This document shows positions 8,417 through 15,169 of a stretch of 33,600 nt of DNA, one piece after another; position 1 is the stretch's first letter, and each line of letters begins with the position of its first letter. The notes below the pieces were generated by a model, which made no database searches, was not told the DNA's origin, and saw only the letters and a list, made by a program, of their open reading frames with translations. Source of the DNA: a virus. The stretch lies in UHGV virus genome UHGV-1067530. One strand, written 5' to 3'. The position numbers and the translations under genes were made by a program.

Positions 8417-9832
8417 ATGAGCGAATTATTTAAACATGCGCACCTTCATGCAGGTCGAACTGAAAATGGTGCTGTAAACCATACTTCATCAATGTCTGCT
8501 CTTGTAGACTTTTACAAAGCTGCTGGTTCAAGCCGTAGCAACGTAGAAATCTTACCAGACCTGTTCTACAAAGCTTTGCGTGAGGATGTTGATGTTGCAG
8601 TTCGTATTTTACTGCATATGCGAGATGTACGAGAAGGTATTGGTGAGCGTAAAGCCTTCAGAACTGTTTTGCTTCAAGCAATTGAAGATAAAGTTTTAGA
8701 GCCTACACAGGTTCTTCGCATTATGGATAAGATTGCAGAACTTGGTCGTTTTGATGACTTCAAAATCTTCGTAGGTACTCGTTTCGAGACAGATGCCTTC
8801 AAACATTTAGAAGCAGCATTACTAGACCCTGCAACAGCAGGTTTGGCAGCCAAGTGGCTACCACGAGTCAAACCACGTCATAAGCAGTTTGTAAAACGTT
8901 TCTGTAAGTTTGCCAACTTGAGTGAGAAAGAGTATCGCACACTGTTGTCTGCGCTCTCTGATACAGTTGAGCAAAAAATCTCTGCTAATGAGTTTGGCAA
9001 GATTGACTACAGTAAGATTCCTTCACTTGCTGCTGCACGTTACCAAAAACTGTTTAACCGCAAAGATGGAGAACGCTACAAAGCTTACATCGAGTCCTTA
9101 TCAAAGGGTGAGACTAAGATTAATGCTGGTGCTGTTTACCCATACGATGTGATTAAGTCTGTTAAGTATGGTAATGCAGATGTTGCTAATGAGCAGTGGA
9201 AAGCACTACCAAACTGGATGGCAGAGGGTGAAAACATTCTCTGTATGTCTGATGTTTCACGTTCAATGTCTTGGGTGAATTTTGGCTCCATTACTACTCT
9301 GGATATTGGTGTATCACTTGCATTGTATGTAGCAGAACGCAATACAGGTTGCTTTAAAAATGAGTTAATGGTTTACTCAACAAACCCTCACTTCATCGAA
9401 CTGAGTGGTGATTTACGAAACCGTCATCGTCAGGTGATGCGGCACGTTGAATATGGCTCAACTAACTTACAAGCAGCTTTTGACCGTATTCTTGAGACAG
9501 GTAAAAGAAATAACTTGACTCAGAAAGATATGCCAAGTAAGCTTATCATCTTCTCAGATATGGAGTTCAATCAGGTTGATGGAGCTAACGGTCGCACAAA
9601 CTTTGAAGCAATCCAGAGTAAGTACAAGAAAGCTGGATACGAAATGCCACAACTGGTATTCTGGTACTTAGCAAACCGTAATGGTACTTGCGAAGTATCT
9701 GTTAAGGATAACGGTGTAGCAATGGTATCTGGTTTCTCTCCAGCCACTTTAAAAGCTCTGCTTGGTGGTGAGAAGTTTGACCCTATCAGCGTAATGCTCA
9801 AAGCAGTAATGATTGACCGTTATATCTGGTAA
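8417..9832 (+). CDS. vWA-domain protein with N-terminal alpha-helical domain; possibly Ro60/TROVE-like (DUF2828-type)
   Basis: MIDAS motif in ILCMSDVSRSMS (DxSxS), downstream YGSTNL (T) and LIIFSDMEF (D) at vWA-typical spacing; N-terminal ~270 aa has no motif I recognise; the TROVE assignment is inference. Confidence 0.55.
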   Translation: MSELFKHAHLHAGRTENGAVNHTSSMSALVDFYKAAGSSRSNVEILPDLFYKALREDVDVAVRILLHMRDVREGIGERKAFRTVLLQAIEDKVLEPTQVLRIMDKIAELGRFDDFKIFVGTRFETDAFKHLEAALLDPATAGLAAKWLPRVKPRHKQFVKRFCKFANLSEKEYRTLLSALSDTVEQKISANEFGKIDYSKIPSLAAARYQKLFNRKDGERYKAYIESLSKGETKINAGAVYPYDVIKSVKYGNADVANEQWKALPNWMAEGENILCMSDVSRSMSWVNFGSITTLDIGVSLALYVAERNTGCFKNELMVYSTNPHFIELSGDLRNRHRQVMRHVEYGSTNLQAAFDRILETGKRNNLTQKDMPSKLIIFSDMEFNQVDGANGRTNFEAIQSKYKKAGYEMPQLVFWYLANRNGTCEVSVKDNGVAMVSGFSPATLKALLGGEKFDPISVMLKAVMIDRYIW

Positions 9833-9850: not shown

Positions 9851-9879
9851 TTGACAATGTGTTTGATACCCTTTAATAT
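9851..9879 (+). promoter_or_regulatory. Putative sigma70-like promoter heading the tRNA array
   Basis: TTGACA (9851-9856), 17-nt spacer, TAATAT (9874-9879); the -35 sits inside the inverted repeat GGGTAT...ATACCC. Confidence 0.45.
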
Positions 9880-9941: not shown

Positions 9942-9971
9942 TTGACAATCACTAAAAAATAATGTTAAAGT
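9942..9971 (+). promoter_or_regulatory. Putative second promoter upstream of tRNA-Pro
   Basis: aaaaaagttcTTGACA, 18-nt spacer, TAAAGT; same architecture as the 8348 promoter. Confidence 0.35.
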
Positions 9972-9997: not shown

Positions 9998-10074
9998 CTC
10001 TGTTTAGCTCAGCTTGGTAGAGCGTTCCGTTTGGGGCGGTAAGGCCGGAGGTTCAAGTCCTCCAACAGAGACCA
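9998..10074 (+). tRNA. tRNA-Pro (anticodon TGG)
   Basis: Acceptor CTCTGTT/AACAGAG, D-arm GCTC/GAGC, anticodon loop TTTGGGG, T-arm GGAGG-TTCAAGT-CCTCC, encoded CCA. Confidence 0.8.
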
Positions 10075-10081
10075 AATTAAT

Positions 10082-10159
10082 GTTCCAGTAGACAAAATGG
10101 TATAGTCACCACTCTTTCAAAGTGGATATTTGAGGGTTCAAATCCCTTCTGGAACGCCA
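10082..10159 (+). tRNA. tRNA-Glu (anticodon TTC)
   Basis: Acceptor GTTCCAG/CTGGAAC, anticodon stem CCACT/AGTGG, loop CTTTCAA, T-loop TTCAAAT, CCA. Confidence 0.8.
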
Positions 10160-10162
10160 GTT

Positions 10163-10239
10163 TTGACAGAAGACCAATTACAGCAAACTTAATCTTATTC
10201 ATCTGAAGGTAAATCGGACAAAGAAGAGATTTGGTCTGG
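10163..10239 (+). repeat. Inverted-repeat-bounded element, copy 1 (TTGACAGAAGACC-AA-TTACAGCAA ... TTGGTCTGG)
   Basis: 5' box CAGAAGACC + TTACAGCAA, 3' box GGTCTGG; termini AGACCAA/TTGGTCT are complementary. Confidence 0.6.
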
Positions 10240-10251
10240 TCATTAAGAATT

Positions 10252-10327
10252 GCGGGTATAGAGAAAGGGCGTCTCACATGTCTCATTAGCATGGTATCGG
10301 CAGGTTCGACTCCTGCACCCGCCTCCA
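10252..10327 (+). tRNA. tRNA-Met/Ile2-like (anticodon CAT), slightly irregular acceptor/T-stem register
   Basis: Acceptor GCGGGTA, D-arm GAGA/TCTC, anticodon stem CATGT/GCATG, loop CTCATTA, T-arm GCAGG-TTCGACT-CCTGC; 3' strand ACCCGCC pairs with a 1-nt offset. Confidence 0.5.
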
Positions 10328-10329
10328 AA

Positions 10330-10397
10330 TTTACAGAAGACCGTTTACAGCAATATTTATTAAATTTTTAGCGGAAAAATTGAAAGATGTGGTCTGG
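10330..10397 (+). repeat. Inverted-repeat-bounded element, copy 2 (TTTACAGAAGACCGTTTACAGCAA ... GGTCTGG)
   Basis: 5' 27 nt identical to copy 4; internal AT-rich hairpin AATTTTT/AAAAATT. Confidence 0.6.
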
Positions 10398-10410
10398 TAA
10401 TACTAAACAT

Positions 10411-10487
10411 GGTTAGGAAGCACATAAGGTATGTGCGGTCGCCTGTTAAGCGAATGGCACAGGGTTCGAATCCCTGACTAACCGCCA
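10411..10487 (+). tRNA. tRNA-Asn (anticodon GTT)
   Basis: Acceptor GGTTAGG/ACTAACC, D-arm GCAC/GTGC, anticodon loop CTGTTAA, T-arm CAGGG-TTCGAAT-CCCTG, discriminator G, CCA. Confidence 0.75.
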
Positions 10488-10556
10488 AATTTAGGAGAGA
10501 AGCGATTGCTCACCGATTTGTAAGGTGCAAGTCCTTAGCCTGAATAGAAATTAAAT

Positions 10557-10644
10557 GTGTCGTTATCCCGTAGATGGTAGCGGTGGGGACTGTAAATCCC
10601 TTGTCATTGAGACTCGGTAGGTTCGACTCCTACACGGCACACCA
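10557..10644 (+). tRNA. tRNA-Tyr (anticodon GTA), long variable arm
   Basis: Acceptor GTGTCGT/ACGGCAC, anticodon loop CTGTAAA, ~15-nt variable arm, T-arm GTAGG-TTCGACT-CCTAC, CCA. Confidence 0.7.
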
Positions 10645-10649
10645 ACAAA

Positions 10650-10727
10650 GGTTATGTAGTTTAATTTGGTTAAAATACTCCCCTGTCACGGGAGATGATG
10701 AGGGTTCAAATCCCTTCGTAACCGCCA
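10650..10727 (+). tRNA. tRNA-Asp (anticodon GTC)
   Basis: Acceptor GGTTATG/CGTAACC, anticodon stem CTCCC/GGGAG, loop CTGTCAC, T-loop TTCAAAT, CCA. Confidence 0.75.
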
Positions 10728-10788
10728 ATTTTGAGAGGGCTATTTAGCCCCTCCCTTAAAGAGTTCTTACGAGTATTCTTTAAAGGAG

Positions 10789-10862
10789 CAGAAGACCAAA
10801 TACAGCAAGTTACTTAAAATTTCAAGCCAATTTAATTTTGAAAAATTTAAAACTTGGTCTGG
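10789..10862 (+). repeat. Inverted-repeat-bounded element, copy 3 (CAGAAGACC-AAA-TACAGCAA ... TTGGTCTGG)
   Basis: Same terminal boxes; interior is a long AT-rich imperfect hairpin (CAAGTTACTTAAAATTTCAA / TTGAAAAATTTAAAACTTG). Confidence 0.6.
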
Positions 10863-10871
10863 CTCAACAAA

Positions 10872-11006
10872 TTTACAGAAGACCGTTTACAGCAAAACTT
10901 AAACAATCTATTTCTCGGTAAAGAAAAGGAGAAGGTTCGATTCCTTCACTCGGCAGGTGTCGAGTTGGTGTAATGGTAGCACTTAAGATGATAAACAACG
11001 GTCTGG
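10872..11006 (+). repeat. Inverted-repeat-bounded element, copy 4 (TTTACAGAAGACCGTT ... AACGGTCTGG), containing tRNA-like fragments
   Basis: 8-bp terminal complementarity AGACCGTT/AACGGTCT; interior holds a T-arm (GAAGG-TTCGATT-CCTTC) followed by a D-arm-like segment. Confidence 0.6.
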
Positions 11007-11007
11007 T

Positions 11008-11151
11008 AATTATCTTTGTAGATAAGTTATTAAGCTTACCTGTGAGTATGCGACCACAAAGGGTGAAAGGGTAAATTCTAGATTTAAACCCAAAAAGGCA
11101 CATCGCTACAGACCTTAAGCAAGTCTGGGTAGCTTATCTACAAAGATAATT
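11008..11151 (+). repeat. 19-bp perfect inverted repeat (AATTATCTTTGTAGATAAG / CTTATCTACAAAGATAATT) flanking 106 nt
   Basis: Read directly: 11008-11026 is the exact reverse complement of 11133-11151; the interior contains CAGACC...GTCTGG. Confidence 0.7.
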
Positions 11152-11155
11152 TAAT

Positions 11156-11231
11156 GGAAGTGTAGCAGAATGGTGATGCGGCAGACTTTTAATCTGACAG
11201 GCGATGGGTTCGAATCCCTCCACTTCTACCA
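11156..11231 (+). tRNA. tRNA-Lys (anticodon TTT)
   Basis: Acceptor GGAAGTG/CACTTCT (G1-U72 wobble), anticodon loop CTTTTAA, T-loop TTCGAAT, discriminator A, CCA. Confidence 0.7.
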
Positions 11232-11235
11232 ATAT

Positions 11236-11312
11236 GGTTCAGTCGCAGATAAGGTAATGCAAGGGTCTCATAAGCCCTATGAATGTGGGTTCGATTCCCA
11301 TCTGAACCTCCA
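11236..11312 (+). tRNA. tRNA-Met or Ile2 (anticodon CAT)
   Basis: Acceptor GGTTCAG/CTGAACC, anticodon stem AGGGT/GCCCT, loop CTCATAA, T-arm TGGG-TTCGATT-CCCA, CCA. Confidence 0.75.
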
Positions 11313-11314
11313 AT

Positions 11315-11389
11315 TGTGGGTTAGCATAAATGGTAATGCAAACGGCTGATAACCGTTAGAAGAGGGTTCGATACCCTCACCTACAACCA
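11315..11389 (+). tRNA. tRNA-Ile (anticodon GAT)
   Basis: Acceptor TGTGGGT/ACCTACA, D-arm GCA/TGC, anticodon stem AACGG/CCGTT, loop CTGATAA, T-arm GAGGG-TTCGATA-CCCTC, CCA. Confidence 0.75.
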
Positions 11390-11404
11390 ATTTCAATAAA
11401 GTTG

Positions 11405-11433
11405 TTGACATTGAGATGTGACTACTTTATAGT
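11405..11433 (+). promoter_or_regulatory. Putative sigma70-like promoter inside the tRNA array
   Basis: aaagttgTTGACA (11405-11410), 17-nt spacer, TATAGT (11428-11433). Confidence 0.45.
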
Positions 11434-11439
11434 AACTAA

Positions 11440-11726
11440 AATACTTCAGAATATGTATAATTCAAACACCAATACATGAGCGTTAGACGTAACACAATGT
11501 GGGGAAATTTGTTGTACATATTCTGAATAGTTTTCGTTGCGTAGCGTCTATTTTGCAAATTTAAAATAAATGCAAACGACAATGTTTTTCTGGCAGTAGC
11601 TTGATAGGCTAAACACCAGTGAGGTCTTCCAATCCCTCATCAAAGAATTTGGCGTACTAGCCCACGGTATGATTAATAAGGTGGGCATCTTTAAGGGCTT
11701 TCTAAGAGAGTCTTTAAAGATAATTA
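11440..11726 (+). ncRNA. Candidate structured non-coding RNA region (ORF-free, multiple hairpins)
   Basis: No ORF of 60 aa or more; 13-bp perfect inverted repeat TTCAGAATATGTA (11445-11457) / TACATATTCTGAA (11515-11527); hairpins GCCCAC...GTGGGC, TGAGG...CCTCA, TTTGCA...TGCAAA; sits downstream of the 11405 promoter. Confidence 0.35.
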
Positions 11727-11808
11727 CGGGGCGTATCTCAGCGGTCTTCTAAACCGCCGTTAACCGAGTAAGTGGAGTATGCGGGTTCGAGTCCTGCCGC
11801 CTCGACCA
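11727..11808 (+). tRNA. tRNA-like, Arg(TCT)-type anticodon arm, atypical (no canonical D-arm, 23-nt segment before the T-arm)
   Basis: Acceptor CGGGGCG/CGCCTCG, anticodon stem GCGGT/ACCGC with loop CTTCTAA, T-arm GCGGG-TTCGAGT-CCTGC, discriminator A, CCA; the D-arm 3' strand is not identifiable. Confidence 0.45.
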
Positions 11809-11950
11809 ATTAGTTAGCAGATTACTTAGACGACCTAAGCGGGTCTTCCTGTAGGGAGGTGGTCTGTATCTCATGTTTTCCAGAACATGTAAATAATCTG
11901 AGAAGGGGCTTTACAGTGTTGAGATAATACGGTAAGCTTCGAATTATAGT

Positions 11951-12033
11951 ATGGGACGATGTTAAGACTCTAAGGCATGAGCAACGGCTTCCAACACCGT
12001 TTCAAAGGGGTTCAACTCCTCCGTCCCATGCCA
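11951..12033 (+). tRNA. tRNA-like, Trp(CCA)-type anticodon loop, atypical (7 extra nt in the D region)
   Basis: Acceptor ATGGGAC/GTCCCAT perfect, hairpin ACGGC-TTCCAAC-ACCGT, T-arm AGGGG-TTCAACT-CCTCC, discriminator G, CCA; D region is 26 nt. Confidence 0.4.
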
Positions 12034-12046
12034 AAGTCTTATTAGG

Positions 12047-12134
12047 GGTAGGTAGCGGCTAATGGTAGCCAAACTGTCTTGAAAACAGTTGCCACTGTAG
12101 AGATACGGTGAGGGTTCGACTCCTTTACTTACCG
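12047..12134 (+). tRNA. tRNA-Ser (anticodon TGA), long variable arm; CCA not encoded
   Basis: Acceptor GGTAGGT/ACTTACC, anticodon stem ACTGT/ACAGT, loop CTTGAAA, ~20-nt variable arm, T-arm GAGGG-TTCGACT-CCTTT, discriminator G. Confidence 0.7.
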
Positions 12135-12137
12135 CCT

Positions 12138-12391
12138 AATAAGATTTAAAGCCAAGCTTCATTCGGATGTCGCTTTGGTATCCCGCGTGTATTGTCGTAC
12201 ACACTGATAAAACACCTAGTAGGTGTCACGGAGAAGAGATAATATCAAGCTCTCCAAAGGTTCTAGTCACCGGATTAAACAAGACTATGCAAAGACCTTT
12301 TTAGGTCTTTTTAGAGGGCTTCTAAGGTTATTACAGCTTGTTGTGGAACCTTGTTGCTTAGGTTCTTAGAAGTTCTCTAAAAAGATTTAAT
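12138..12391 (+). ncRNA. Candidate structured non-coding region (hairpins, terminator-like stem, long CTTCTAAG/CTTAGAAG hairpin)
   Basis: ORF-free; hairpins GTGTA...TACAC, ACACCTA...TAGGTGT, GGAGA...TCTCC; AAAGACC-TTTTT-AGGTCTTT followed by a T-run (about 12288-12312); inverted repeat CTTCTAAG (12320) / CTTAGAAG (12365). Confidence 0.3.
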
Positions 12392-12469
12392 GGGAGATTG
12401 ACGGTAATTGGTAAACCTACCATCCTTAGAAGTTGGTGTTTGAGGGTTCGAATCCCTTGTCTCCTACCA
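12392..12469 (+). tRNA. tRNA with Leu-type anticodon TAG but short (5-nt) variable loop
   Basis: Acceptor GGGAGAT/GTCTCCT, anticodon stem CCATC/GTTGG (one U-U), loop CTTAGAA, T-arm GAGGG-TTCGAAT-CCCTT, discriminator A, CCA. Confidence 0.55.
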
Positions 12470-12476
12470 AATTAAT

Positions 12477-12552
12477 GCAGGTGTAGCAAAATGGTTATGC
12501 GGCTGACTCTTAATCAGTAAGACGATGGGTTCAATTCCCTCCACCTGTACCA
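12477..12552 (+). tRNA. tRNA-Lys (anticodon CTT)
   Basis: Acceptor GCAGGTG/CACCTGT, anticodon stem GCTGA/TCAGT, loop CTCTTAA, T-loop TTCAATT, discriminator A, CCA; close paralog of the 11156 tRNA. Confidence 0.7.
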
Positions 12553-12558
12553 GACATT

Positions 12559-12634
12559 TGGGTCATAGTTTATATGGTTAAAATTCGAGTTTTGCAAACT
12601 TGGGAACTGAGTTCAATTCTCAGTGACTCCACCA
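12559..12634 (+). tRNA. tRNA-Ala (anticodon TGC)
   Basis: G3-U70 wobble present in the acceptor (TGGGTCA/TGACTCC), anticodon stem CGAGT/ACTTG, loop TTTGCAA, T-arm CTGAG-TTCAATT-CTCAG, discriminator A, CCA; 1-72 is unpaired (T/C). Confidence 0.7.
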
Positions 12635-12640
12635 ATTAGT

Positions 12641-12715
12641 GCATCCATAGTTTAAACGGGAAAATTACAGTCTTCCAAACTGAGGTTGAGGGTTCGATTC
12701 CCTCTGGATGCTCCA
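12641..12715 (+). tRNA. tRNA-Gly (anticodon TCC)
   Basis: Acceptor GCATCCA/TGGATGC perfect, anticodon loop CTTCCAA, T-arm GAGGG-TTCGATT-CCCTC, CCA. Confidence 0.75.
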
Positions 12716-12721
12716 AACAAT

Positions 12722-12798
12722 GCTGCTTTCGTATAATTGGCTATTACACATCCCTTGTAAGGATGGAAATGCAGGTTCGAGTCCTGTGAGCAGCACCA
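12722..12798 (+). tRNA. tRNA-Thr (anticodon TGT)
   Basis: Acceptor GCTGCTT/GAGCAGC, anticodon stem CATCC/GGATG, loop CTTGTAA, T-arm GCAGG-TTCGAGT-CCTGT, discriminator A, CCA. Confidence 0.8.
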
Positions 12799-12799
12799 A

Positions 12800-12893
12800 T
12801 TCAGAGGTCAAGTGAAAGACCGCTGGTGTCAACTGAAGACCGTAACAAATTCCACGGAGTTGAGTTAGCGGCACAACTTCAGACCTCTTTCAC
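12800..12893 (+). repeat. Repeat/palindrome-rich spacer related to the CAGAAGACC element family
   Basis: CTGAAGACCGTAACA (12836-) resembles the 5' box; AGAGGTC...GACCTCT and CTGAAG...CTTCAG inverted repeats. Confidence 0.4.
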
Positions 12894-12968
12894 ACTCGCT
12901 TAGTTTATATGGTAAAACATCACCCTTACAAGATGAAGAAAAAGGTTCAAGTCCTTTAGTGAGTACCA
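12894..12968 (+). tRNA. tRNA-Val (anticodon TAC)
   Basis: Acceptor ACTCGCT/AGTGAGT, D-stem GTTT, anticodon loop CTTACAA, T-arm AAAGG-TTCAAGT-CCTTT, discriminator A, CCA. Confidence 0.65.
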
Positions 12969-12969
12969 T

Positions 12970-13047
12970 GTTCCAGTATCCCAATTGGCAGAGGATGCAA
13001 GCTCAAACCTTGTATTAGTGACGGTTCGAATCCGTCTTGGAACACCA
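12970..13047 (+). tRNA. tRNA with Leu-type anticodon CAA but short (6-nt) variable loop
   Basis: Acceptor GTTCCAG/TTGGAAC, D-loop AATTGGCAGAG, anticodon stem TGCAAG/CTTGTA with loop CTCAAAC, T-arm GACGG-TTCGAAT-CCGTC, discriminator A, CCA. Confidence 0.55.
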
Positions 13048-13065
13048 ATTTAAAGAGGCTATTTA

Positions 13066-13623
13066 ATGAGATATTTGAAGTATGCTTCATGGATTTTCTT
13101 AGCTTTACTAGACCCAATTGCAGCAATCCTAGCAGTTATCTTAGCACCTTTCGTAGTTCCATTCTACAGTGAGAAGAAAGGACATCTACCTTTTGGATTC
13201 AGATGGATGGAGACCTATGACAACCCGATTGATGGTGACGAAGGTCACGTTAAAAGATGGGCTAAGATTAGAAAGATTGGTAAGCTGGGTGTCTACATGC
13301 AGAGAGTTGGGTGGCTCTGGAGAAACAAAGCTTATAACTTCTCTTACCATGTATTAGGAAGAGATGTAAAAGATGTTACTAAGTGGAGAGGTAATATCAA
13401 CGTAAGTTCTGACCCTGAAGATAATCAGACTGGTTATCTCCTAATGTGGAACAACAATGCTTGGGGATTATTCGCTTTTATTCCGTCAATTAAAGTCTTT
13501 GGTAAACAGTTTTACTGGAGAATTTATGTTGGATGGAAACTAAAAAGTGTTGTCCCAGAAGAAAGAGCATTCTCAAGGGAAAGAGTTATGTTGGCATTCT
13601 TTATTCATCCACTGAGAAAGTAA
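13066..13623 (+). CDS. hypothetical membrane protein (185 aa) embedded in the tRNA array
   Basis: ORF with RBS aaagagg upstream; N-terminal hydrophobic helix WIFLALLDPIAAILAVILAPFVVPF; Trp/Arg-rich remainder. Confidence 0.6.
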   Translation: MRYLKYASWIFLALLDPIAAILAVILAPFVVPFYSEKKGHLPFGFRWMETYDNPIDGDEGHVKRWAKIRKIGKLGVYMQRVGWLWRNKAYNFSYHVLGRDVKDVTKWRGNINVSSDPEDNQTGYLLMWNNNAWGLFAFIPSIKVFGKQFYWRIYVGWKLKSVVPEERAFSRERVMLAFFIHPLRK

Positions 13624-13631
13624 AGATTTAA

Positions 13632-13707
13632 AGGGGATTAGTTTACAAGGTTAAAACCTCGGTCTTTGAAATCGAAGAAGTTGGTTCAATTCCAACATCC
13701 CCCGCCA
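13632..13707 (+). tRNA. tRNA-Gln (anticodon TTG)
   Basis: Acceptor AGGGGAT/ATCCCCC with unpaired 1-72, discriminator G, anticodon stem TCGGT/ATCGA, loop CTTTGAA, T-arm GTTGG-TTCAATT-CCAAC, CCA. Confidence 0.7.
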
Positions 13708-13709
13708 AT

Positions 13710-13788
13710 GCTCCATTACTCCAATTGGCAGAGAGGCCAGACTTAAAATCTGTGTTATGTATCGGTTCGAATCCGATATGGAGTACCA
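13710..13788 (+). tRNA. tRNA with Leu-type anticodon TAA but short (7-nt) variable loop
   Basis: Acceptor GCTCCAT/ATGGAGT, D-loop AATTGGCAGAG, anticodon stem CCAGA/TCTGT, loop CTTAAAA, T-arm ATCGG-TTCGAAT-CCGAT, discriminator A, CCA. Confidence 0.55.
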
Positions 13789-13793
13789 ATTTT

Positions 13794-13869
13794 AGCGGTA
13801 TAGCATAACTGGCAATGCAGCAGTCTCTGAAGCTGTCCTATTAAGGTTCAAATCCTTATGCCGCTGCCA
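13794..13869 (+). tRNA. tRNA-Gln (anticodon CTG)
   Basis: Acceptor AGCGGTA/TGCCGCT, D-arm GCAT/ATGC, anticodon loop CTCTGAA, T-arm TAAGG-TTCAAAT-CCTTA, discriminator G, CCA. Confidence 0.7.
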
Positions 13870-13900
13870 CTTCTAAGGGTTCTTACGAGAGTCCTTAAAT

Positions 13901-13976
13901 GTGGCCTTATCATAAACGGTAATGACCCATGCTGTGAACATGGTCTATACGGGTTCAAATCCCGTAGGTCACCCCA
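13901..13976 (+). tRNA. tRNA-His (anticodon GTG)
   Basis: Acceptor GTGGCCT/AGGTCAC, D-arm TCAT/ATGA, anticodon stem CCATG/CATGG, loop CTGTGAA, T-arm ACGGG-TTCAAAT-CCCGT, discriminator C, CCA; position -1 is T, not G. Confidence 0.8.
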
Positions 13977-13981
13977 ATTTA

Positions 13982-14058
13982 TAGTCCAAGTAGCTTATAT
14001 GGTTAAAGCGCGTGTCTGAAAAACATGAGAAGAGGGTTCAAATCCCACTGGACTACCA
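13982..14058 (+). tRNA. tRNA-Phe (anticodon GAA), acceptor register slightly irregular
   Basis: D-arm GCTT/AAGC, anticodon stem CGTGT/ACATG, loop CTGAAAA, T-loop TTCAAAT; acceptor TAGTCCA/TGGACTA pairs perfectly but leaves a 4-nt linker before the D-stem. Confidence 0.6.
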
Positions 14059-14074
14059 ATTTCAAAGGTGCTTA

Positions 14075-14809
14075 ATGAAAGAGATGACAGGACAAGGTAA
14101 GGAGATTTTTAATCTCTTAAAAACCGGTAAAGGGTTTTCTAACCCACTTATTACTGGTGCAGCAGTTCTCGGTGGAACCGTAGCTGCCTCTACATCACTT
14201 GTAAGCTCTATTAGCTCTGTAACAGACCCGACAATGAATGAGAAACTTGTTGCTGCTGGACTTACAACAGTCCTTCTAAACAGCTTTACAACAAGCCTGA
14301 CAAGCACTACAGCAACTACTAAGACCCTAACAGACTATGGTCAAAAGTCTATTGATGAGTTTTCATCACGTATGCAGGTAGCAAAGGGGTATTCCAATGT
14401 TATGGGTGCAGCAGGAGAACAAGTTGGTTGTACACCATTCAGTGGTATTATGGGTGTTGCTACAGAGTATGGTCAAAAAGCTATTGACATGATTAACAGC
14501 ACACTAGACAGTGTTAACGGTGTGTTAAGTGACTTACAAGACGCTATTGATAAGGGTCTTGATACTGTTTCTGATTTAGCTAATCAAGCTGTTAGCAAGA
14601 TTAATGAAGGTATCTCAAAGATTACAGCTTATGCAGATGAAGTTGTGCAGATGATTGAAGAAGAAGCTGCCCTTATTGCAGAGTACCTTAAAACGAATAT
14701 CAATGGGTTCTTAGCAGGTATCTTACCAGACTGGTTTGATGATGCTCGCAAAACTGGTGTAATCGACACTATTGCAACACCAGAAATGAAGAACGCATTA
14801 CAGAAATAA
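14075..14809 (+). CDS. hypothetical Ser/Thr-rich protein (244 aa)
   Basis: The ORF track starts at 14012 inside tRNA-Phe; first ATG with an upstream aaagg RBS is 14075 (MKEMTGQ...); S/T-rich N-half, helical C-half. Confidence 0.55.
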   Translation: MKEMTGQGKEIFNLLKTGKGFSNPLITGAAVLGGTVAASTSLVSSISSVTDPTMNEKLVAAGLTTVLLNSFTTSLTSTTATTKTLTDYGQKSIDEFSSRMQVAKGYSNVMGAAGEQVGCTPFSGIMGVATEYGQKAIDMINSTLDSVNGVLSDLQDAIDKGLDTVSDLANQAVSKINEGISKITAYADEVVQMIEEEAALIAEYLKTNINGFLAGILPDWFDDARKTGVIDTIATPEMKNALQK

Positions 14810-14810
14810 T

Positions 14811-14903
14811 GGAAGATTAACCCTAAAAGGTAAGGGAGCAGTTTGCTAAACTGCCAGTAGCTGAGAAATCGGTGTACCAGTTCAAGTCTGGTATCTTCCT
14901 CCA
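14811..14903 (+). tRNA. tRNA-Ser (anticodon GCT), long variable arm
   Basis: Acceptor GGAAGAT/ATCTTCC perfect, D-stem CCC/GGG, anticodon stem GCAGT/ACTGC, loop TTGCTAA, ~20-nt variable arm, T-arm ACCAG-TTCAAGT-CTGGT, CCA. Confidence 0.8.
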
Positions 14904-14907
14904 ATCT

Positions 14908-14983
14908 GAATCCGTGACAGAAATGGATATGTGCCTGTCTGCAAAACAGGTTTATAAGGGTTCAAGTCCCTTCGGATTCTCCA
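14908..14983 (+). tRNA. tRNA-Cys (anticodon GCA)
   Basis: Acceptor GAATCCG/CGGATTC perfect, anticodon stem CCTGT/ACAGG, loop CTGCAAA, T-arm AAGGG-TTCAAGT-CCCTT, discriminator T, CCA. Confidence 0.8.
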
Positions 14984-15145: not shown

Positions 15146-15169
15146 GACGGTCTCTGTGCCGTCTTTTTT
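15146..15169 (+). terminator. Putative intrinsic terminator or attenuator upstream of the packaging operon
   Basis: Stem GACGG/CCGTC with loop tctctgtg, followed by TTTTTT. Confidence 0.45.

Follow-up and report, generated by a model that had tools for sequence, protein, structure and literature searches.

The segment from position 9998 to 14983 of the virus genome UHGV-1067530, of which we analysed a stretch of 33,600 nucleotides (nt; here called the window), raises the question of why a virus should carry some 26 transfer RNA (tRNA) genes in a row, and what else might be encoded between them. An original prediction, made from the letters of the DNA, had described a large tRNA array at exactly these limits and had offered two purposes for it, compensation for codon bias and replacement of host tRNAs cleaved by anticodon nucleases. 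We conclude with considerable confidence that the region is the tRNA cluster of a virulent phage of the Felix O1 type, that its 24 canonical and two non-canonical genes serve mainly in codon supply, and that it is also a wider RNA island.

Over its 4,986 bases the region matches Salmonella phage Mushroom (KP143762 / NC_041923, Felixounavirus) at 100% identity; for Felix O1, in which the gene order is the same, the identity is 97.7%, and at least 80% of the region is covered in 237 phage records. The array is already known, since the Felix O1 cluster was published in 2010 as 22 tRNAs, in three groups with one lone tRNA downstream, and codon compensation was argued for it at that time (Whichard et al. 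2010, PMC3185647). Felix O1 differs from Mushroom in having HNH endonuclease genes within the array, and it is because such insertions are missing that the Mushroom array is the shorter of the two; HNH homing endonuclease genes occur at varying array positions in the records of Felix O1, FO1a, Alf5, SME50 and bumzen. The Mushroom RefSeq record has 22 tRNA features, placed on the strand opposite to the real genes, and from it are absent Ser-GCU (14811-14903), Cys (14908-14983) and the two genes discussed below as Arg-like and Trp-like. The RNAs that we describe from the spacers are annotated in none of the published or RefSeq annotations of Felix O1-type phages.

ARAGORN called 24 tRNA genes, all on the + strand, with outer limits identical to those predicted. 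A scan with the Rfam tRNA model RF00005, the kind of covariance-model scan that the original prediction had named as its possible refutation, retained the majority of the hand-parsed genes, placing 23 of them at or above the gathering score of 29 bits (31.7-65.2 bits, E 3e-12 to 6e-3). The union of the two tools is 25 genes, with three discrepancies: 11727-11805 (31.7 bits), which corresponds to the Arg-like gene of the earlier reading, was called by Rfam only, and the CAU gene at 10251-10327 and the Tyr gene at 10557-10644 by ARAGORN only. The twenty-sixth gene, the Trp-like 11951-12033, was called by neither ARAGORN nor the Rfam tRNA model, its best Rfam match being tRNA-Sec at 16.9 bits. 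Gene for gene, the 26 genes and anticodons parsed by hand were nevertheless correct, 25 by the tools and the Trp-like one by the compensatory changes given below. Each of the 24 ARAGORN genes forms a cloverleaf in which the acceptor stem has 7 bp and the anticodon loop, with U33, has 7 nt; all have a T arm. Among the 26 genes there are 25 distinct anticodons, and the claim that most amino acids are covered holds for 18 through the canonical genes and for all 20 if the Arg-like and Trp-like genes work. CCA is encoded in 25 of the 26 (the exception, Ser-UGA, ends CC-U), and the atypical acceptor ends remarked on earlier are present as G1.U72 in Lys-UUU, Lys-CUU, Leu-UAG and Leu-UAA and as 1:72 mismatches in the CAU gene at 10251 (U.C), Ala (U.C) and Gln-UUG (A.C). 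The three tRNA-Leu genes (12392-12469, 12970-13047 and 13710-13788) are 78-79 nt long, lack the bacterial long variable arm and retain A73. What escaped the earlier reading is that the gaps of the array hold RNAs that are not tRNAs; we return to these after the tRNA genes themselves.

In the Arg-like gene (11727-11808) the acceptor stem, of 7 bp, is followed not by a D arm but by the 7-nt linker UAUCUCA; a 5-bp anticodon stem carries the loop CUUCUAA, with the anticodon UCU, and beyond a variable region of 23 nt come a normal T arm and ACCA. In an exact-pattern scan we found the element in 24 IMG/VR viral contigs and in 11 distinct versions, among which each of the three stems covaries (as in CGGGGCG/CGCCTCG, ACGGCCG/CGGCCGT and GCCCCGG/CCGGGGC). 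The linker UAUCUCA, which the search pattern left unforced, was invariant across the versions. By BLAST, unannotated copies are present in rV5-like, T5-like and jumbo phages; the element occurs also in unassigned metagenome phage contigs. In phage Bas63 and further Felix-like phages this slot is taken by a tRNA-Arg(UCU) of the ordinary kind. The authors of the Felix O1 paper had expected a tRNA for the heavily used AGA codon and did not find one (PMC3185647); the D-armless gene is probably this missing AGA decoder of Felix O1-type phages. Since standard finders skip this gene, phage tRNA censuses and codon-adaptation studies may undercount. As for the Trp-like gene, it folds as a cloverleaf (z = -2.8) with a C31.A39 mismatch, and its 13 variants in relatives all retain A1-U72, G73 and CCA, most with the loop CUCCAAA; among them both the anticodon stem (ACGG/CCGU to UAAG/CUUA) and the T stem have changed in a compensatory manner.

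To relate the gene set to codon use we compared 8,847 phage codons (38 open reading frames of the window; 39.3% G+C) with 39 genes of E. coli K-12 (15,985 codons; 52.0% G+C in the host loci). Codons that pair exactly with phage anticodons were enriched in the phage, with a mean log2 ratio of +0.59 against -0.50 for the others (Mann-Whitney p = 0.0099). As a share of their amino acid's codons in phage and host, respectively, the values were 52% and 2% for AGA, 42% and 9% for ACA, 54% and 17% for CCA, 12% and 3% for CTA, 28% and 9% for each of TTA and TCA, 16% and 6% for GGA, 41% and 20% for GCA, 51% and 24% for CAA, and 42% and 24% for AAG; the decoders of these ten codons are phage tRNAs with U34 or, for AAG, Lys-CUU. 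For each of the nine U34 tRNAs that serve 4- and 6-codon families the matching codon is enriched, by 1.5-fold at the least (Val GTA) and by 26-fold at the most (Arg AGA). These observations support compensation for codon bias, the first of the two purposes that had been proposed, as a function of the array.

The second purpose drew no specific support from what we observed. On this account the array mainly replaces host tRNAs destroyed by anticodon nucleases (PrrC, RloC, colicin E5/D-type, retron/PARIS effectors), the phage copies being resistant through differences in sequence. Such a role has been published for other phages (van den Berg et al. 2023), and the gene adjoining the array, described below, counters a defence system in Bas63. 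We compared 14 phage tRNAs with their E. coli K-12 isoacceptors (a set without the host copies of Asn and Arg) and found, consistent with resistance, 58-72% identity overall and a difference in every anticodon stem. Within the 7-nt anticodon loops, His, both Gln (UUG and CUG) and Leu-UAG differ from the host at 32 and/or 38, Pro and Glu differ at 38, and Leu-UAG differs also at 37. The loops of Lys-UUU, Tyr, Asp, Gly, Thr, Val and one CAU tRNA, however, are the same as in E. coli K-12. Lys-UUU is the target of PrrC, and Tyr and Asp are targets of colicin E5; at these classic sites, the known E. coli nuclease targets whose host copies were compared, the loop sequences do not support replacement of cut tRNAs. 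Lys-CUU, an added isoacceptor that the host lacks, is in step with the raised use of AAG in the phage and for both reasons is equally compatible with codon supply and with evasion. Also, the choice of anticodons tracks phage codon usage closely, which a defence model does not predict, and we saw no tRNA ligase or repair gene in the window. We regard defence against anticodon nucleases as an unlikely main function, yet as the strongest competitor to codon supply.

The array is immediately preceded, on its own strand, by the gene (8417-9832) for a protein, gp127, that proved recognizable by its fold. A Pfam scan matched DUF2828 and DUF7788 only, and not TROVE, and a comparison of the protein sequence with PDB gave no match; the fold search alone succeeded. 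With an AlphaFold 2 (AF2) model of mean predicted local distance difference test (pLDDT) score 87.7, the best 12 Foldseek matches in PDB were all Ro60/TROVE chains, aligned over the full length (E = 4e-8 to 3e-6, template-modelling score 0.49-0.67), and included Xenopus Ro60, Deinococcus Rsr and the Ro60 of Thermus phage phiLo. The residues D279/S281/S283 (DxSxS) of the metal ion-dependent adhesion site (MIDAS) in the von Willebrand factor A (vWA) domain are invariant. As modelled, then, the product folds like Ro60, with a HEAT-repeat ring and a vWA domain with MIDAS. The Bas63 orthologue, gp130, is described in a preprint (PhageMaP) as Ro60-like and as countering the Ppl defence, and the authors speculated that some of the Bas63 'tRNAs' are Y RNAs.

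Four RNAs in the spacers, E1 to E4, are the candidates that we propose as partners of this protein. They begin 332-1,041 nt past the stop codon of the Ro60-like gene, on the same strand. On the 5' side each has an outer 4-bp strand, an AGA bulge and AGACC(N), followed by (U)UACAGCAA; on the 3' side each has (N)GGUCU, a G bulge and the outer stem strand, and both stems covary among the four paralogues (repeat family D6). E4, the long form, encloses a permuted tRNA-like module composed of a T arm (10931-10947), a loop-capped acceptor-like stem (10948-10965) and a D-arm-like element (10967-10982). A permuted tRNA mimic of this sort is typical of YrlA.

We examined the generality of this arrangement in 80 phage loci with Ro60-like homologues, most of them 38-47% identical in protein, by scanning for a 7-bp stem strand, 1-3 nt, NCAGCAA and a perfect partner strand, with controls for strand, position and scrambled motif. 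The pattern matched 122 times on the gene strand and 31 times on the opposite strand; within 700 nt of the gene the figures were 66 and 7, as compared with 1-6 for the scrambled motifs. Match density was 0.60 per kb near the gene and 0.066 per kb elsewhere, and 50 of the 80 loci had at least one near-gene copy, with 42 different stems represented. The short forms, 46-67 nt in length, have invariant columns C, A, G, C, A and A, a U in more than 90% and a 3' end in ...CCUG; the T-loop motif occurred in none of 33 short forms and in 9 of 24 long forms outside the Felix-like loci, in the same layout as in E4. Two or three repeats of AGCAA (ACAGCAA ... AAGCAA ... AGCAAA) are frequent in the variable loop of the short RNAs of six loci (L018, L019, L021, L023, L031 and L080), as if to provide several binding sites for one factor. 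Judging from sequence and position, we infer that E1-E4 are candidate partners of the upstream protein, of the Y-RNA type, and the UUACAGCAA RNAs in general look like an undescribed Y-RNA-like class tied to Ro60 homologues of the DUF2828 type. A protein that counters defence in a sister phage would in this way gain concrete candidate RNA partners.

The speculation published by the PhageMaP authors, extended to this array, would have some of the annotated tRNAs be Y RNAs or tRNA mimics that serve the Ro60-like protein rather than decoders. The array does contain genes that might be read in this manner, namely the atypical CAU gene at 10251 (U37, U1.C72), Tyr and His, which are annotated as 'pseudo', the three Leu genes, which have no long arm, and the Arg-like gene, which has no D arm. 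Yet these genes retain 7-nt anticodon loops with U33, and their anticodons match codons that are preferred by the phage or unique (AGA, TGG). The spacers hold a better family, with a terminal bulged stem, a conserved motif and one member with a tRNA-like module, and it is this family that adjoins the Ro60-like genes in 50 of 80 loci. We consider it improbable that tRNA genes of the array play the part that we assign to E1-E4.

The other RNA of note lies between tRNA-Ile and the Arg-like gene and resembles transfer-messenger RNA (tmRNA). Its core contains a tag reading frame at 11572-11604 (GCA AAC GAC AAT GTT TTT CTG GCA GTA GCT TGA, or ANDNVFLAVA and stop), hairpin A (11619-11640), hairpin B (11653-11671) and a terminal hairpin (11687-11722), with pseudoknot A formed by 11629-11632 and 11649-11652 and pseudoknot B by 11660-11665 and 11681-11686. 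Rfam scores for the core were 15.4 bits with tmRNA and 24.9 bits with tmRNA_permuted, both below the gathering score of 47. By BLAST and pattern scan we found the module in lambdoid phages (in HK633 between pR' and the holin gene), in Kuttervirus, N4-like and Felix-like phages and in other contigs; it is present at 69 IMG/VR loci and in 135 of 5,426 complete E. coli genomes (2.5%), and it is unannotated in the phages as in the E. coli genomes. The IMG/VR loci yielded 11 tag variants, all in frame (ANDNVFLAVA, ANEEMYLAVA, ANDNQYLAVA, ANDDIYLAAVA, ANDNTFLAVA and six more), which fit AN[DE]xx[FY]LA(A)VA plus stop and differ by synonymous changes and one 3-nt insertion. AUA is kept at -6 to -4 of the GCA resume codon, as in E. 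coli tmRNA, where AUA sets the frame.

The structure of this RNA, a stop-codon hairpin with two hairpin-type pseudoknots, was tested on an alignment of 19 sequences. With it, 93.1% of cells were paired, as opposed to 32-42% when the partners were slid; 15 of 25 pairs, including all nine pseudoknot pairs, had changed on both sides; and the covariation score of 0.48 (against 0.08-0.17) was reached by none of 500 shuffles. Both pseudoknots are 3' of the tag, and an upstream PK1 was not established. ARAGORN at default settings found no tmRNA at this site, nor in 60 of 61 extended loci. A scan for an acceptor stem and T arm found nothing shared across groups, and in none of the five phage groups did we find a tRNA-like domain joined to the module. 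In its coding half, then, the element resembles a tmRNA, but it is without the tRNA-like domain by which a tmRNA is defined. It could be the coding piece of a split tmRNA with the acceptor piece elsewhere, or it could engage SmpB, S1 or RNase R as a ligand or decoy; the anti-CRISPR protein AcrIIIA1 has t(m)RNA fragments as cofactors.

Regarding the ends of the tmRNA-like RNA, the -10 box is about 8 nt ahead of the conserved UUAGUUUUCGUU in most Felix-like relatives, which places the probable start of the RNA some 45 nt 5' of the resume codon. Between the promoter-like site and the core, Mushroom and Bas63 have a hairpin of about 90 nt (11438-11534) that most relatives lack, as if it were a mobile hairpin insertion. 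In four lambdoid loci (L003, L087, L107 and L151) the module is flanked by two copies of GUGCUCUUUCC some 270 nt from each other, which suggests that the module arrived as an inserted cassette. Salmonella phage PhiSH19 (Kuttervirus, locus L004, 600-3096) has 2.5 kb without an annotated gene that hold the module together with several tRNA-like shapes on long stems, one of them with the acceptor GCCGUU/AACGGC-U-CCA and an 8-bp P2-like helix.

Several candidates for the rest of a tmRNA, or for another origin, were tried and rejected. A 'permuted tmRNA' made with the 3' half of tRNA-Ile was suggested by relaxed ARAGORN settings and by tmRNA_permuted, but tRNA-Ile has U3-A70, the proposed 5' partner lies in the hairpin insertion that most relatives lack, and relaxed ARAGORN gave many false tags. 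A tRNA-like candidate in HK633, made of 5' GGGCUGG and 3' CCGGCCACCA at a distance of about 400 nt, does not recur in the other lambdoid copies. The candidate in Kuttervirus, made of GCUGUUU and AAACGGC-U-CCA, contains U3.G70 and faces competition from a local hairpin of 13 bp. The D-armless element with G3.U70 just downstream gives way to a normal tRNA-Arg in relatives, and its copies in other phages have G3-C70. A +1-frame open reading frame that overlaps the tag (MQTTMFFWQ and stop) is not conserved, its AUG being missing in three groups. Recent capture of host ssrA was rejected also: the element is homologous to E. coli ssrA in the tag only, and megablast with the element did not hit ssrA in E. 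coli genomes.

Should the spacer RNAs be taken instead for processing signals, terminators or decaying remnants (a tmRNA pseudogene, for instance) with no function of their own? Many of the spacers are plain long hairpins, the hairpin of about 90 nt comes and goes among relatives, HNH endonuclease genes shuffle the region, and the tmRNA-like element has no tRNA-like domain, tmRNA fragments being known by-products of island integration. Integration fragments, however, carry the 3' end of ssrA and not the tag, whereas here the homology to ssrA is confined to the tag. The tag frame is open, with synonymous substitutions, and the pseudoknots show compensatory changes across lambdoid, Kuttervirus and Felix-like phages; and the UUACAGCAA RNAs are ninefold enriched beside Ro60-like genes that are only 38-47% identical in protein. 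Decay or mere processing is thus a quite unlikely explanation for these two kinds of RNA. As conserved, structured elements the spacer RNAs are well supported, and the functions that we assign to them are putative.

Taken together, the observations suggest the following course of events. The tRNA genes would probably be transcribed from host-type promoters as multi-tRNA precursors, which host RNase P and 3' nucleases would probably cut, CCA being pre-encoded in nearly every gene. Once charged, the set would supply decoders for the codons of a phage of 39% G+C in a host of 52% G+C; nearly every 4- or 6-codon family would be served by a U34 tRNA that reads the over-used A-ending codon, with Lys-CUU added for AAG. 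As a wider RNA island the cluster would also provide four RNAs of stem plus UUACAGCAA as partners that may bind the Ro60-like protein, and a tag-coding RNA of tmRNA origin that has two pseudoknots but lacks a tRNA-like domain.

Some observations weigh against this account. To our knowledge, a tag-coding RNA without a tRNA-like domain has no known route to the ribosome. The Arg-like gene has no D arm, and its Felix-like copy has G3.U70 with A73, the alanine identity set, for which reason its amino acid is uncertain; the copies in other phages have G3-C70. The CAU gene at 10251, Tyr and His are weak or 'pseudo' by other tools, and Tyr is 'pseudo' both in RefSeq and in the Felix O1 paper (PMC3185647). 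Known Y RNAs of bacteria and phages carry GNCGAA/CGAA, which is missing from E1-E4, where the motif is UUACAGCAA, and the Rfam YrlA model gave no match at these four sites. The promoter-like matches, which are consensus matches only, are no commoner than in shuffled sequence. Lastly, the tRNAs of the related phage Bas63 are mostly dispensable on four laboratory strains, and the benefit of such an array must therefore be conditional.

The tRNA array itself is a textbook case of a virulent AT-rich phage that carries its own decoders; having been published in 2010, it changes nothing, and the unannotated spacer RNAs are the part worth a further look. With regard to these we put forward, as a tentative proposal, that the spacers encode two undescribed RNA families. 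One would be a tmRNA-derived tag RNA that has lost, or never had, a tRNA-like domain, yet whose coding and structure are maintained by selection in phages and prophages of enterobacteria that are not related to each other; the other would consist of RNAs of stem plus (CC)UUACAGCAA that are partners of DUF2828-type Ro60-like proteins, a viral counterpart of the Class I RNAs of Dictyostelium. If the former is true, it would represent a new way of using, or of interfering with, trans-translation; a split tmRNA, or a decoy for trans-translation or RNase R, would amount to a new kind of phage interference with ribosome rescue.

The features of the region are collected in the following table.

Features of the tRNA array of UHGV-1067530 and its surroundings, with the evidence for each (positions are those of the window)
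Feature	Position	Strand	Evidence
Ro60-like protein gene (product gp127), directly upstream of array	8417-9832	+	DUF2828 and DUF7788 (Pfam); fold
Two sigma-70-like promoter matches before first tRNA	9851-9879, 9942-9971	+	each 10/12 consensus positions
tRNA-Pro (UGG)	9998-10074	+	ARAGORN; Rfam 57.7 bits
tRNA-Glu (UUC)	10082-10159	+	ARAGORN; Rfam 57.0 bits
Y-like RNA E1; outer UGAC/GUCA, AGA bulge, inner AGACCAA/UUGGUCU, motif UUACAGCAA	10164-10242	+	repeat family D6; fold; pattern scan
CAU tRNA, first copy (Met or Ile2); U1.C72, U37	10251-10327	+	ARAGORN only; below Rfam gathering score
Y-like RNA E2; UUAC/GUAA, AGACC/GGUCU, UUUACAGCAA	10331-10400	+	repeat family D6; fold
tRNA-Asn (GUU)	10411-10487	+	ARAGORN; Rfam 48.0 bits
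tRNA-Tyr (GUA), long variable arm	10557-10644	+	ARAGORN; Rfam tRNA-Sec only, 29.6 bits
tRNA-Asp (GUC)	10650-10727	+	ARAGORN; Rfam 65.2 bits
Y-like RNA E3; GAGC/GCUC, AGACCAA/UUGGUCU, AUACAGCAA	10786-10865	+	fold z = -2.1; pattern scan
Y-like RNA E4, long form; basal stem and UACAGCAA	10873-11009	+	fold -35.5 kcal/mol, z = -2.4; pattern scan
Structured spacer RNA, very stable, multibranched, 22-bp closing stem	11010-11150	+	z = -6.2
tRNA-Lys (UUU); G1.U72, anticodon loop as in E. coli lysT	11156-11231	+	ARAGORN; Rfam 54.4 bits
CAU tRNA, second copy; G1-C72	11236-11312	+	ARAGORN; Rfam 55.6 bits
tRNA-Ile (GAU)	11315-11389	+	ARAGORN; Rfam 63.4 bits
Best sigma-70-like promoter match of region, before tmRNA-like RNA, TTGACA-17-TATAGT	11405-11433	+	11/12 consensus positions
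Hairpin of about 90 nt, inserted at 5' end of tmRNA-like RNA	11438-11534	+	z = -5.4
tmRNA-like RNA core	11527-11726	+	conserved UAGUUUUCGUU, tag reading frame, two pseudoknots, terminal hairpin
tRNA-Arg(UCU)-like, non-canonical	11727-11808	+	Rfam tRNA 31.7 bits; covariation
tRNA-Trp(CCA)-like, atypical D region	11951-12033	+	fold z = -2.8; compensatory changes, 13 variants
tRNA-Ser (UGA), sole gene without full genomic CCA	12047-12136	+	ARAGORN; Rfam 33.2 bits
Long near-perfect hairpin spacer	12301-12390	+	z = -3.8
tRNA-Leu (UAG), 78 nt; G1.U72, A73	12392-12469	+	ARAGORN; Rfam 40.0 bits
tRNA-Lys (CUU), isoacceptor absent from E. coli and Salmonella	12477-12552	+	ARAGORN; Rfam 56.9 bits; 82% identical to Lys-UUU (repeat family D8)
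tRNA-Ala (UGC); G3.U70, A73, U1.C72 mismatch	12559-12634	+	ARAGORN; Rfam 48.0 bits
tRNA-Gly (UCC)	12641-12715	+	ARAGORN; Rfam 59.6 bits
tRNA-Thr (UGU)	12722-12798	+	ARAGORN; Rfam 54.7 bits
tRNA-Val (UAC)	12894-12968	+	ARAGORN; Rfam 60.0 bits
tRNA-Leu (CAA), 78 nt	12970-13047	+	ARAGORN; Rfam 44.0 bits
Protein gene in array, DUF7338, 'holin' in RefSeq	13066-13623	+	Pfam; annotation
tRNA-Gln (UUG); A1.C72 mismatch, G73	13632-13707	+	ARAGORN; Rfam 56.6 bits
tRNA-Leu (UAA), 79 nt; G1.U72	13710-13788	+	ARAGORN; Rfam 47.5 bits
tRNA-Gln (CUG)	13794-13869	+	ARAGORN; Rfam 57.0 bits
tRNA-His (GUG), 'pseudo' in RefSeq	13901-13976	+	ARAGORN; Rfam 53.3 bits
tRNA-Phe (GAA)	13983-14058	+	ARAGORN; Rfam 45.0 bits
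Protein gene in array, DUF7217	14075-14809	+	Pfam; annotation
tRNA-Ser (GCU)	14811-14903	+	ARAGORN; Rfam 46.2 bits
tRNA-Cys (GCA)	14908-14983	+	ARAGORN; Rfam 56.0 bits
First terminator-like hairpin and T run past array	15146-15163	+	consensus match only
Terminase, portal and structural genes	downstream of array		

Other spacers of the array are structured as well. The segments 12301-12390, 12803-12888, 10488-10556 and 11686-11722 fold far better than shuffled sequences (z of -2.6 to -5.8) and may be processing sites or further small RNAs. The spacer 11010-11150 holds a mini AGAC-CUUAAGCAA-GUCU-GG hairpin that resembles the stem and motif of the Y-like RNAs.

Comparable arrangements were found in other phages. 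Of 75 non-Felix loci with Ro60-like genes, 24 carry at least three tRNAs on the same strand, and in all 75 together we counted 211 tRNAs on the same strand and none on the opposite one; a canonical tmRNA is present on the same strand, within about 6 kb, in seven loci (L035, L037, L043, L046, L058, L066 and L068). Because this same-strand synteny extends across loci, we recognize a recurrent phage RNA island made up of Ro60-like genes, Y-like RNAs, tRNAs and tmRNA-type RNAs, of which the Mushroom-type array is one version. Three of the canonical tmRNA tags near Ro60-like genes end in ...ELAVA and stop. Matches to group I introns were seen in two loci with Ro60-like genes and tRNAs, L028 (11696-11922, 71.5 bits) and L081 (4253-4443, 40.9 bits).

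Among known systems, phages T4 and T5 likewise have tRNA genes clustered on one strand amid small stable RNAs (T4 species 1 and 2) and homing endonuclease genes. T4 has eight tRNAs and opposes PrrC with the tRNA repair system Rnl1/Pnk, the counterparts of which we did not see in the window. The nearest described analogue is found in the cluster C mycobacteriophages (Bxz1, Rizal), with a near-complete tRNA set, Ro60 and small RNAs, and a tmRNA-type RNA. They differ from the present array in each of the last three components: their Ro60 is a recognizable TROVE protein, whereas here a DUF2828/DUF7788 protein is recognizable by fold only; their Y RNAs are of the YrlA type with GNCGAA, whereas the motif here is UUACAGCAA; and their tmRNA is canonical and found by ARAGORN, in contrast to a tag RNA without a tRNA-like domain.

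The tmRNA-like RNA shares with tmRNA the GCA resume codon, AUA at -6 to -4, a stop codon within a hairpin and pseudoknots that follow, and its tag of 10-11 residues, AN[DE]xx[FY]LA(A)VA, is similar to the E. coli tag ANDENYALAA. Both one-piece and two-piece (permuted) tmRNAs differ from it in having a module of acceptor stem, T arm and CCA, and the phage RNA has only two pseudoknots after the tag. A census of 2014 recorded phage tmRNA only in mycobacteriophages and Bacillus phage G, and our search of the literature for a phage tmRNA-like RNA gave nothing relevant.

E1-E4 and their relatives are arranged like YrlA/YrlB with Rsr and like Yrl1/2 of Thermus phage phiLo, in that they adjoin a Ro60 gene on the same strand, their ends pair in a bulged stem, and there are short and long forms, the long form having a T arm, a capped acceptor-like stem and a D arm. 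The motif of the YrlA/YrlB type is GNCGAA/CGAA, in contrast to UUACAGCAA in the phage RNAs.

The Y-like RNAs also resemble the Class I RNAs of Dictyostelium. The Rfam model RF01414 (Dicty_Class_I_RNA), the sole Rfam family to match the Y-like sites, scored 19.7 bits at E1, 21.2 bits at E2 and 24.4 bits at predicted sites in two distant loci, with matches that span the full length of the model; its gathering score of 41.5 bits was reached at no site in 138 kb. Both kinds of RNA are about 45-65 nt long, with a 6-7 bp stem that joins the ends, (CC)UUACAGCAA straight after the 5' strand, a variable A-rich middle and CUG(U) at the 3' end, and the full 11-nt Class I motif CCUUACAGCAA is present in nine phage loci. 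Dictyostelium DdR-21 (GUUGACCUUACAGCAA...GUCAACUG) may be likened to phage E1 (AGACCAAUUACAGCAA...UUGGUCUG) and to the phage RNA of locus L018 (AGGUUCCUUACAGCAA...GGAACCUG). Class I RNAs differ in their eukaryotic hosts, in an upstream element of the RNA polymerase III type, and in having no known link to a Ro60-like protein; they have been reported as unique to Dictyostelia and of unknown function. We treat the resemblance, which is one of architecture and motif, as a lead and not as membership. A pull-down with DdR-21 gave four proteins, one of them (DDB_G0281243) uncharacterized, and a literature search on DUF2828 and DDB_G0281243 returned no domain information. If the phage RNAs are indeed counterparts of the Class I RNAs, the latter would be Y-RNA-like ligands of a Ro60-like/vWA protein; DDB_G0281243 would be the obvious candidate for that partner, and the question in the amoeba would gain a testable protein.

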